Made by a program: the position numbers and the translations under genes. This document shows positions 33,450 to 37,106 of a stretch of DNA of 64,000 nt, piece after piece (within the stretch, counting starts at the first letter, position 1; every line of letters starts with the position of its first letter). Below the pieces are notes generated by a model. It ran no database searches and was not told where the DNA came from. It saw only the letters and a program-made list of their open reading frames with translations. The stretch is from the sequence record MT446416.1; one strand, given 5' to 3'. The DNA is from Escherichia virus TH47.

Positions 33450-34154
33450 TTACAAGCCATGTCTTTTCAAAAATCTAGCAAACACATTTTTGGAAGCACC
33501 ATAGCTTTCATATATACTAACTTTTTTCTCACCATTAGTCAAACGTTTTTTTATATCTTCTATGTTATCTTCTAAACGTTTTACGTTTGCAAATTTCTTA
33601 GATGGTATGTTATTTTTGGTTCTATAATTCAGTACTGAACCTGAACTGATATTCATTATTTTAGCAATTTCAGTATCTAACAAACCTTGGTTAATATATT
33701 CTTTTACCTTTTCATAATCAACTGATGTTTCACCACCCTTTGTATTTGACGGAGGCTTGACCATTTTTTGTGAACACTCAACACTACAATATTTTGTATA
33801 TGATTTCACTTTAGTATGTCTACGGGAAAATTCCGTATTACAACAAGCACATACAAATGAATCATATCGTGCTTGTACTCCATTCTTATGTGTTTTATAA
33901 CGATGTTCATCAACATGAAGTATTTGTAAATTAGACAAATCATCATTTGTGAAATCATTATCAATGTGGTCTGCTTCTTCAGACTCAGTTAAATATCTAC
34001 CTTCTTGTACTGCTAATAGATATCTGGCATATTGAGTACTGCTTCTATCAGTTGGAGAATTATAAAGTATTACAGTTCTTCTACCTTCAGGGTTTATCTG
34101 TATATACCCATTCTTCCAATCATTACTATATGGATATTCTAATTTTATTTTCAT
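33450..34154 (-). CDS. HNH homing endonuclease with C-terminal HTH-like region (234 aa)
   Basis: EADHIDNDFTNDDLSNLQILHVDEHRYKTH; starts 19 nt after the tRNA-Met 3' end and stops 8 nt before tRNA-Asn. Confidence 0.75.
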   Translation of the reverse strand: MKIKLEYPYSNDWKNGYIQINPEGRRTVILYNSPTDRSSTQYARYLLAVQEGRYLTESEEADHIDNDFTNDDLSNLQILHVDEHRYKTHKNGVQARYDSFVCACCNTEFSRRHTKVKSYTKYCSVECSQKMVKPPSNTKGGETSVDYEKVKEYINQGLLDTEIAKIMNISSGSVLNYRTKNNIPSKKFANVKRLEDNIEDIKKRLTNGEKKVSIYESYGASKNVFARFLKRHGL

Positions 34155-34173
34155 TATTTTATTTCAAAGTTTG

Positions 34174-34478
34174 TGAGCCATCTGTGAGTCGAACACAGTA
34201 CCTAACGATTCGTATAATCTATAGTTTTCACTATAGTACGGACTATATCATCATCCCATAGGGATGCCGGACGCTAATGATGTATTACACAGTAAGATCG
34301 TACTGTACCATCTAGTCTCTGCACCTTCCCAATACGCTTATTGGGCTTGGCTCAGGATTGTCATCACCATTACGTGTTAAGATTTCCCTGAATTCATCCA
34401 GTTTTTCAATCACCATTACTGATGAAAGTCACCATTGTCGATGAGTCGTTTGCTCTAACCACCGTGAGCTAATGGCCC
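34174..34478 (-). tRNA. tRNA-Met/Ile2-type (anticodon CAT) interrupted by a 230-nt intron
   Basis: 5' exon (34478-34441) GGGCCAT-TA-GCTC-ACGGTGGTTA-GAGC-A-AACGA-CTCAT. 3' exon (34210-34174) AA-TCGTT-AGGTA-CTGTG-TTCGACT-CACAG-ATGGCTC-A. The joined exons give a canonical cloverleaf. Confidence 0.85.
34211..34440 (-). mobile_element. group I intron (IC3-like) in the anticodon loop of tRNA-Met
   Basis: Follows U36 and ends in G. Contains CAGGGAAA, CAATCCTGAGCCAAGCC, GGGAAGGTGCAGAGACTAGATGG and TAGTCCG, which match the core of bacterial tRNA group I introns as I remember them. No ORF inside. Confidence 0.8.
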
Positions 34479-34507
34479 GATTTGGGTGTTCCTAGTGTTT
34501 CATTATT

Positions 34508-34721
<214 letters not shown>

Positions 34722-34733
34722 AAATTAATTATA

Positions 34734-35126
<393 letters not shown>

Positions 35127-35898: not shown

Positions 35899-36101
<203 letters not shown>

Positions 36102-36105
<4 letters not shown>

Positions 36106-36266
36106 ATTCGTACCAGTAGTTCAATTAAGTACATTTCATATGCTGGATCGTTGATAAGTTTATCATACAGATGTGACTCTGAAATGAATTCCCAATGATA
36201 TTTTCGCCATTTACCAAAACCTGCATATCTAAAATTAATGTCATTCATCCATTCTTCATGTGTCAT
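36102..36266 (-). CDS. 54-aa MTHEEW-family micro-protein, copy B
   Basis: MTHEEWMNDINFRYAGFGKWRKYHWEFISESHLYDKLINDPAYEMYLIELLVRI; ATGA overlaps on both sides. Confidence 0.6.
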
Positions 36267-36427
36267 AATCGTACCATTATTTCAATAAAGAACCACGGAT
36301 ATACTTCATGGTTTATAAGTTTATCGTATTCTGCTGGGTCTGATATAATTTCCCAATGATATTTTCGCCAACTACCTATACCCGAATATCTAACATTAAT
36401 GTCATCCATCCATTCTTCATGTGTCAT
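36263..36427 (-). CDS. 54-aa MTHEEW-family micro-protein, copy A
   Basis: MTHEEWMDDINVRYSGIGSWRKYHWEIISDPAEYDKLINHEVYPWFFIEIMVRL. Confidence 0.6.
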   Translation of the reverse strand: MTHEEWMDDINVRYSGIGSWRKYHWEIISDPAEYDKLINHEVYPWFFIEIMVRL

Positions 36428-36465: not shown

Positions 36466-37004
<539 letters not shown>

Positions 37005-37024
37005 ATCCTTAATATTATATTTTA

Positions 37025-37096
37025 TAAAGGGCCGGAGAATCGAACTCCGATTGGATTCTTAGAAGGAATCTGTTTTATCCATTAAACTAGCCCCTC
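37025..37096 (-). tRNA. tRNA-Arg (anticodon TCT), 72 nt
   Basis: GAGGGGC-TA-GTTT-AATGGATA-AAAC-A-GATTC-CTTCTAA-GAATC-CAAT-CGGAG-TTCGATT-CTCCG-GCCCTTT-A; the acceptor stem has G1-U72 and G3-U70 wobbles. Confidence 0.75.
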
Positions 37097-37106
37097 AGTA
37101 CTAATA

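Follow-up and report, generated by a model that had tools for sequence, protein, structure and literature searches.

What interrupts a tRNA gene in the tRNA island of a jumbo coliphage, to which lineage does the interrupting element belong, and which tRNA would its removal restore? We address these questions for Escherichia virus TH47 (sequence record MT446416.1), of which a stretch of 64,000 nucleotides, referred to here as the window, was analysed. The window belongs to an Asteriusvirus-like jumbo coliphage (PBECO4/121Q/RaK2-related) with ~95% identity to fEgEco12, PBECO4 and 121Q, and its tRNA island is transcribed from the minus strand. Positions 34174-34478 hold the two exons of a tRNA gene with the anticodon CAU, written tRNA(CAU) or, in DNA letters, tRNA(CAT), together with an insert that a first-pass annotation, made by a model from the letters and their open reading frames (ORFs), had read as a bacterial-type (IC3) group I intron in a tRNA-Met gene. 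The best overall explanation of the locus is that a group I intron of a phage lineage splits a tRNA(CAU) that is probably tRNA-Ile2, and we put the probability of this reading at about 0.85.

The split gene and its boundaries

When the intron is removed, exon 1 (GGGCCATTAGCTCACGGTGGTTAGAGCAAACGACTCAT) and exon 2 (AATCGTTAGGTACTGTGTTCGACTCACAGATGGCTCA) join into a 75-nt cloverleaf that ARAGORN calls as tRNA(cat), with acceptor stem GGGCCAT/ATGGCTC including a G2-U71 pair, anticodon stem AACGA/TCGTT and loop CTCATAA. This is the canonical cloverleaf that had been proposed; it reads on the minus strand, and the intron-less allele of the sister phage WPEC5 agrees with it. The intron lies between U36 and A37 in the anticodon loop. 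Its length of 230 nt, the U that precedes it, its terminal G and its lack of an ORF had likewise been recognised correctly.

Sister phages have an uninterrupted tRNA(CAT) gene at this place in the island, flanked by tRNA-Ser and tRNA-Asn. The WPEC5 allele and the spliced exons align colinearly over the junction CTCAT/AATCGTT, which fixes both splice sites without any model. The intron-less allele of Salmonella phage SD-15 is 93% identical to the spliced exons.

A covariance-model search, which the first-pass annotation had proposed as a check, matched the intron to Rfam family RF00028 with 100.5 bits (E=7.5e-25), well over the gathering score of 50, and homologous copies score 95-104 bits. The 5' end of the RF00028 alignment, at position 34532, lies 92 nt beyond the true 5' splice site (34441-34532, minus strand): P1 and P2 of the model were placed on sequence that precedes the tRNA, and the 5' exon was absorbed as an insertion. 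Intron coordinates taken automatically from this model would be wrong over that segment. ARAGORN did not detect the split gene when run without intron search. With introns allowed it reported 'tRNA-Arg(acg) i(36,230)', in which the anticodon is misplaced, and this call served as a detector only.

Ribozyme fold

The P1-P9 fold was drawn by hand and tested by covariation in two alignments and by thermodynamic folding; position k of the intron corresponds to window coordinate 34441-k, and the positions of all elements are collected in Table 1. The first alignment comprises the cores of 27 introns, namely those of the window, Escherichia phage Turkey5 and Klebsiella phage Muenster, two terL introns of Vibrio phages and 22 introns from IMG/VR. 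In its core helices 94.2% of the cells are paired and 30 of the 54 pairs have changed on both sides, compared with 27-45% of cells and 3-7 double-changed pairs in controls slid by 1-3 columns. The second alignment consists of five full precursor tRNAs that host the intron. Here 98.2% of the cells are paired, versus 33-49% when slid, and compensatory changes are found in P2, P9 and P9.0 as well as in the acceptor stem (4/7 pairs) and T stem (3/5 pairs) of the tRNA. The minimum free energy (MFE) fold recovers P2, P3, P4, P5, P6/6a, P8 and P9 (z=-2.2). Together with the RF00028 match, this covarying P1-P9 fold bears out the earlier recognition that a phage tRNA(CAT) gene is split in its anticodon loop by a group I intron.

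Across the 27 introns, P4, P6 and P6a are paired in 100% of the cells, with 4/6, 1/2 and 5/7 pairs double-changed, respectively. The pairing of the P1 guide with the exon is invariant in all five tRNA-hosted copies while the flanking bases differ. Between the Escherichia coli and Klebsiella phage copies, P2 shows the compensatory changes C-G to A-U and U-G to C-G. P9.0 shifts from GUA/UAC to UUU/AAA, and in P9 three pairs are double-changed; the terminal G (omega-G) is kept in all copies. P7, the helix that holds the guanosine-binding site of group I introns, is followed by an additional hairpin in which 8/10 pairs are double-changed while the ACGAUCUU loop and the GUAAUA bulge are kept across the 27 introns (alignment columns 101-135). 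Judged from this pattern, a conserved loop and bulge on covarying stems, the hairpin would make a tertiary contact, as its conservation implies. A P10 pairing between intron CGA and exon UCG was also considered and is not claimed: it competes with the anticodon stem, and its register changes in the assembly OU509535.

Distribution of the intron

The intron is found at the same site in Turkey5 (99% identity) and, at ~92% identity, in the Klebsiella Alcyoneusvirus phages Muenster, KP13-7, RCIP0023 and phiKp_21 and in OU509535. In every one of these records the site is unannotated. The genome paper on Muenster reports 6 tRNAs (PMC8407769). A single intron site is occupied in three different tRNA(CAU) bodies, and the intron (92-99% identical) is more conserved than the bodies that surround it; of the more than 50 related records, only 6 contain it. 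Because the intron outconserves its tRNA bodies and occurs so sporadically, it appears to be mobile.

Literature searches, which covered subscription journals thinly, turned up no description of a phage tRNA gene split by a group I intron, nor any mention of an intron in papers on the RaK2/121Q clade. The records that carry the intron leave its site unannotated as well, so the earlier judgement that an intron-split phage tRNA is unusual holds.

A core-motif scan with the pattern GAGCCAAG-N16-46-AAGGTGNAGAGACT was run on a bacterial and a viral (IMG/VR) collection and returned at least 120 matches in each. Among the viral matches listed, 27 of 120, about a fifth, were placed by ARAGORN inside intron-split tRNA genes; some of the 27 could be tRNAs of a host, located where a prophage ends. 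In uncultured viral contigs, intron-split genes for Thr-UGU, Leu-UAA and others occur within dense arrays of 7-35 tRNAs; one such contig, of 436 kb, has a split tRNA-Thr beside 35 tRNAs in 15 kb. A separate scan of IMG/VR for the exon-intron junction (GACTCATN{4,8}GTGACTTTCA) gave 7 matches, all of them due to chance; none belongs to an intron or a tRNA.

In OU509535 the P9 hairpin of the intron (GCCTTTACGAAAGTAT, ~1100-1125 of the locus) resembles that of the Vibrio-phage terL introns, unlike the other jumbo-phage copies. This likeness in sequence suggests modular exchange between introns.

Intron lineage

The first-pass annotation had recognised four core motifs in the insert and had taken them as those of the IC3 introns in Azoarcus tRNA-Ile and cyanobacterial tRNA-Leu. 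The motifs are present and are indeed common to bacterial tRNA introns: of the 120 bacterial matches listed from the core-motif scan, 90 lie in split tRNA genes (Leu-UAA, Arg-CCU, CAU, Gln-CUG, Asn and others). The assignment to the IC3 family does not follow. An IC3 intron would be located in a tRNA anticodon loop, its P7 would run straight into P3', and its nearest relatives would be bacterial or plastid tRNA introns. The window intron has the location (between U36 and A37). Its P7 and P3' are separated by a 34-nt hairpin, and its nearest relatives interrupt protein-coding genes of phages.

Ranked by similarity to the window intron, the top 26 of the matches listed are viral introns outside tRNA genes, and no Azoarcus-type intron is among the best 45. 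Between P3 and P7', the best viral relatives listed share 75-80% identity with the window intron and have identical spacing, and the best bacterial tRNA intron listed (Gln-CUG) aligns over 95 nt only. The related phage introns are hosted by genes for terL (Vibrio phages), the large subunit of ribonucleotide reductase (RNR), the major head protein and psbA (cyanophage S-CBWM1), and the 5' half of the window intron (P2/J2-3/P3/P4) is 75% identical to Twortvirinae introns. The distance from P7 to P7' is 68 nt here, compared with 41-57 nt in most Leu-UAA introns and 41-50 nt in Azoarcus-type introns; since P8 varies in length too, this distance is a crude proxy for the extra hairpin and was relied on for named exemplars only. 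Because of the additional hairpin between P7 and P3' and the nearest relatives in phage protein genes, the intron is probably of a phage lineage and not of IC3 architecture, to judge from its sequence and predicted fold. A pairing between P7 and P3' (P7.1/P7.2) is a hallmark of IA-type introns. The window intron has at that place one bipartite hairpin with a conserved bulge, not two separate hairpins. Phage introns are said to fit the old subgroups poorly (PMC11878797).

The phage protein-gene introns (terL, psbA, Twortvirinae; traditionally IA2) share its helix lengths, including that of the post-P7 hairpin, with 75-80% identity from P3 through P9, and are likewise small and ORF-less; they interrupt ORFs, whereas the window intron interrupts a structural RNA gene and has a P1 guide adapted to UCAU. 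The Azoarcus-type introns of tRNA-Ile(CAU) genes resemble it in their host gene, whose Ile2-like body (GAGCA..GACTCATAATC) carries the anticodon CAU; in their insertion between U36 and A37 (gactcat/...G/aatcc, slashes marking the splice sites, in Polynucleobacter, a Comamonadaceae metagenome-assembled genome and one viral contig); in a short P1 with a GUG(A) guide, the lack of an ORF, a length of ~205-230 nt and GNRA loops on P2 and P9; and in their P4-P6-P7 core motifs. They differ in that P7 (AGAGACUA) leads straight into P3' (GACGGCAC), where the window intron has its 34-nt covarying hairpin, and in that their hosts are bacteria rather than a virulent jumbo phage. In the comparison of insertion sites, initiator tRNAs are split between U33 and C34 instead.

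Bacterial tRNA group I introns have been reported in Leu-UAA (34/35), fMet (33/34) and Arg-CCU (36/37) genes and, as IA-type introns, in Patescibacteria (35/36) (PMC13011429). Like the window intron they are inserted in the anticodon loop, are missed by standard tRNA finders and are mostly ORF-less; the IA type is a minority among them. The 2026 survey that describes them covers bacterial genomes only and holds no phage cases (PMC13011429).

Among the relatives, the terL gene of Vibrio phage vB_VpaM_R16F (770-2798 of the locus) is annotated in at least 5 pieces and contains four group I introns, each matching RF00028 with 72-94 bits.

Identity of the tRNA

An anticodon CAU may belong to an elongator tRNA-Met, to an initiator or to tRNA-Ile2, in which TilS converts C34 to lysidine. 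The earlier label of tRNA-Met had been taken from the anticodon only, and the body of the tRNA speaks against it. In 5,426 E. coli genomes the best match of the spliced Muenster tRNA is tRNA-Ile(CAU), at 83% over the full length, and the two have the same acceptor stem, GGCCCCT/AGGGGCC. The window, Turkey5 and Muenster copies have C4-G69 and C5-G68, the identity pairs by which E. coli TilS distinguishes tRNA-Ile2 from tRNA-Met (PMC11947777); the corresponding pairs of E. coli tRNA-Met are U4-A69 and A5-U68. The D-stem, anticodon stem and variable loop (GAGCAAACGAC...ATCGTTAGGT) are identical to those of tRNA-Ile(GAU) of T4-like and T5-like phages. These phage 'tRNA-Ile' matches were rejected as CAU isoacceptors, their anticodon being GAU, and were kept only for the Ile-type body. 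With the E. coli initiator the window tRNA shares 39/77 positions; its G1-C72 is paired, and its anticodon stem is without the three G-C pairs of initiators.

Codon usage agrees with an Ile2 identity. The phage has 34% G+C, ATA makes up 22% of its Ile codons, and the other island tRNAs Arg-UCU (AGA) and Thr-UGU (ACA) serve A-ending codons. On these sequence features we consider it reasonably probable that the split tRNA is a lysidine-dependent tRNA-Ile2 that reads AUA, and not a tRNA-Met.

The neighbouring HNH gene

The HNH gene starts 19 nt past the 3' end of the split tRNA in the window, exactly as had been noted, and does so in Turkey5 as well. Its product matches PHROG 14913 (HNH; E=2.6e-56); no Pfam family matched it, and a PDB sequence search gave no meaningful relative. 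D62-H63, N75, H84 and the four cysteines are invariant in 5 homologues. Full-length homologues were found only in Turkey5 (94%) and in RaK2 and K64-1 (71%), and homologues of the nuclease domain in Pectobacterium phage CBB and Yersinia phage fHe-Yen9-04. In RaK2, CBB and fHe-Yen9-04 the HNH gene begins ~19-26 nt after an intron-less tRNA(CAU), so that it adjoins tRNA(CAU) in four jumbo-phage genera, whether the intron is present or absent.

The two elements are separable. Intron and HNH gene occur together in the window and Turkey5, the intron alone in the Muenster group and OU509535, the HNH gene alone in RaK2, K64-1, CBB and fHe-Yen9-04, and neither in E9.1, WPEC5 and 121Q. The HNH protein is a separable, free-standing endonuclease, probably of the homing kind, and the conserved adjacency suggests the tRNA(CAU) locus as its putative target.

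By analogy, collaborative homing, in which such an enzyme mobilises an ORF-less intron, is plausible. The precedent is the psbA intron of cyanophage S-PM2 with the free-standing endonuclease F-CphI, described by Zeng, Bonocora & Shub in 2009 (PMC6083498). There, as here, the intron is ORF-less, the endonuclease gene adjoins the split gene, and both elements are sporadic and separable (PMC6083498). F-CphI is of the Endo VII type and targets psbA; the window has an HNH-type enzyme beside a tRNA gene, with a putative cleavage specificity. SegB of T4 and T6 is similar in being a free-standing homing endonuclease in a phage tRNA island that is associated with tRNAs across many phages (PMC2330249, PMC13096335). 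It differs as a GIY-YIG enzyme without an intron, for which cleavage of tRNA genes has been demonstrated (PMC2330249, PMC13096335), where the target of the HNH protein is suggested by position.

In fHe-Yen9-04 the tRNA(CAT)-like gene upstream of the HNH gene g417 (GGCCCTTTACACAC...CTCATAAGAG...GGGCCACCA, ~1103-1181 of the locus) is unannotated and received no ARAGORN call. In the window, the tRNA island contains a second free-standing HNH gene (NUMOD4 + HNH_3; 36466-36990, minus strand), which adjoins tRNA-Arg(tct) at 37024-37097.

Alternative explanations

Several observations weigh against a phage-lineage intron in a working tRNA-Ile2 gene that is mobilised by its neighbour, or against parts of this reading. 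P1 is just 4 bp long. The subgroup placement rests on architecture and relatives, Rfam having one single group I model. The exons of OU509535 have A4-U69 and so lack the TilS pair C4-G69, and over its whole length the window tRNA is only slightly closer to E. coli tRNA-Ile2 (59/76 identical) than to tRNA-Met (54/77). The window and Turkey5 copies have a G2-U71 wobble and no encoded CCA (ATGGCTCACAA, 34165-34180, minus strand). Finally, because each occurs without the other, the HNH gene is not required to maintain the intron. Could the intron then be of the bacterial IC3 type, its host an elongator tRNA-Met whose gene perhaps came from a bacterium along with it? The shared core motifs and an insertion site identical to that of the Azoarcus-type introns, with the anticodon CAT, would fit such an origin, which we nevertheless regard as improbable: Azoarcus-type and Leu-UAA introns lack the J7/3 hairpin, the top relatives are all phage protein-gene introns, the 5' half is Twortvirinae-like and the tRNA body Ile-like, and the intron-less alleles of sister phages indicate that the intron was gained or lost inside the phage lineage. 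A real intron in a genuine elongator tRNA-Met that reads AUG is less far-fetched, though still unlikely. ARAGORN and most GenBank records label the homologous intron-less genes tRNA-Met, labels that derive from the anticodon, and both the OU509535 exons and the small identity margin are in keeping with them; against this, the C4-G69 and C5-G68 pairs, the Ile2 acceptor stem of Muenster and an anticodon arm equal to that of phage tRNA-Ile(GAU) point to isoleucine, and the codon-usage logic of the island favours a reader of AUA.

If the gene were a decaying pseudogene, with inefficient splicing and a non-functional tRNA, then the G2-U71 wobble and the lost CCA of the window and Turkey5 copies would be readily understood, and many relatives manage without the intron. 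CCA is encoded in the intron-less alleles and in the split alleles of Klebsiella phages. Its loss and the wobble could reflect relaxed selection, or may have been left behind when the HNH gene was inserted or by co-conversion. In E. coli, CCA is added post-transcriptionally in any case. All core helices are intact, with P7, the P1 G-U wobble and omega-G conserved, and the compensatory changes in ribozyme and tRNA stems over three exon contexts indicate purifying selection on structure, all of which makes decay very improbable. The chances are even, in our estimate, that the HNH gene has nothing to do with the intron, being an independent endonuclease of the tRNA island while ordinary recombination or reverse splicing accounts for the spread of the intron. 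All four presence-absence combinations of the two occur, and in SegB there is already a known case of phage tRNA genes being cut by a free-standing endonuclease (PMC13096335). However, F-CphI and the psbA intron are separate genetic elements as well (PMC6083498), and in the HNH-only phages the anticodon-arm region is divergent, as expected of a target that has become immune by substitution.

Proposed mechanism and implications

For a phage-lineage intron in tRNA-Ile2, the standard group I mechanism would run as follows. The guide GUGA would pair with exon UCAU to form P1, with the U-G wobble at the splice site, and an exogenous guanosine bound at P7 would attack the 5' splice site. In the next step the G site would be taken by the terminal G230, which P9.0 positions. 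The anticodon stem would hold the exons together until ligation yields the 75-nt tRNA, to which host enzymes would add the non-encoded CCA and modifications. Host TilS would convert C34 to lysidine, and the tRNA would then read AUA. Catalytic activity in vivo, which this scheme presumes, is suggested by the intact and covarying fold. As to origin, an intron lineage of terL, nrdA and capsid genes would have colonised the tRNA(CAU) of RaK2-like phages, at the same site as the unrelated-looking Azoarcus-type intron in bacteria. The HNH enzyme may mobilise the ORF-less intron, which would split, and so protect, the enzyme's target.

That group I introns occur in tRNA anticodon loops is known; phage tRNA is a new host class, and the intron found there is probably of a phage lineage. 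By tradition a line is drawn between the introns of phage protein genes and those of bacterial tRNA genes, and one tRNA site is here used by both, a shared CAU/A site that bears on how tRNA introns spread. A tentative and rather doubtful extension of these results is that phage tRNA islands are an unrecognised habitat of group I introns, that a protein-gene lineage jumped to tRNA-Ile2(CAU), converged on the Azoarcus-type site and moves among tRNA(CAU) alleles of jumbo phages with the HNH gene, against whose enzyme it is protected, by collaborative homing, and that phages could seed or exchange bacterial tRNA introns.

In practice, tRNA finders and phage annotation pipelines miss intron-split genes, so that phage tRNA repertoires and analyses of codon supply are undercounted. 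The E. coli and Klebsiella jumbo phages provide natural alleles with and without intron and HNH gene, usable for studying homing on a tRNA target, and are equally a system for the effect of an anticodon-loop intron on tRNA maturation, e.g., the order of lysidine formation. The compact 230-nt ribozyme, with its unusual conserved post-P7 hairpin, is a possible structural or engineering scaffold.

Feature coordinates and other elements of the island

Table 1 Features of the split tRNA(CAU) locus in window coordinates.
Feature	Position	Strand	Description
5' exon of tRNA(CAU), positions 1-36	34441..34478	-	38 nt, 3' end ...ACGACUCAU; colinear with intron-less WPEC5 and E9.1 alleles
Group I intron	34211..34440	-	230 nt, ORF-less; RF00028 match, intron-less alleles and covariation
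3' exon of tRNA(CAU), positions 37-73	34174..34210	-	37 nt, AAUCGUU...AUGGCUCA; CCA not encoded
Internal guide GUGA (intron 9-12)	34429..34432	-	P1 with exon UCAU (U33-U36); U36-G9 wobble at 5' splice site
P2 hairpin (intron 16-21/26-31)	34410..34425	-	GUAA loop; covariation and MFE fold
P3 (intron 40-46 with 168-174)	34267..34401	-	P3-P7 pseudoknot; 100% paired, 2 pairs double-changed
P4-P5-P6/P6a domain (intron 50-117)	34324..34391	-	Receptor-like internal loop in P5
P7 (intron 124-128 GACUA with 196-200 UAGUC)	34241..34317	-	Invariant, fully paired in 27 sequences
Extra P7.1-like hairpin (intron 129-162)	34279..34312	-	34 nt between P7 and P3'; two stems, ACGAUCUU loop, GUAAUA bulge
P8 hairpin (intron 175-189)	34252..34266	-	98.8% paired, 3 pairs double-changed
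P9.0 (intron 202-204/227-229), P9 (205-222, GAAA loop) and omega-G (230 = 34211)	34211..34239	-	Covariation
Free-standing HNH endonuclease gene	33450..34154	-	234 aa; N-terminal DH..N..H and Cys4 module, C-terminal extension of ~100 aa
Candidate sigma-70-like promoter, best match (TGGACA-17-TGnTATAAT)	34728..34756	-	Upstream of tRNA-Ser; consensus match only

The candidate promoter, judged from its sequence, may drive tRNA-Ser, the split tRNA, the HNH gene and tRNA-Asn. Elsewhere in the island, three tandem ORFs of 54 aa (35941-36105, 36102-36266 and 36263-36427, minus strand) all begin with MTHEEWM and overlap by 4 nt; Turkey5, E9.1 and 121Q have the corresponding triplet of 165-nt coding sequences, there annotated as hypothetical.

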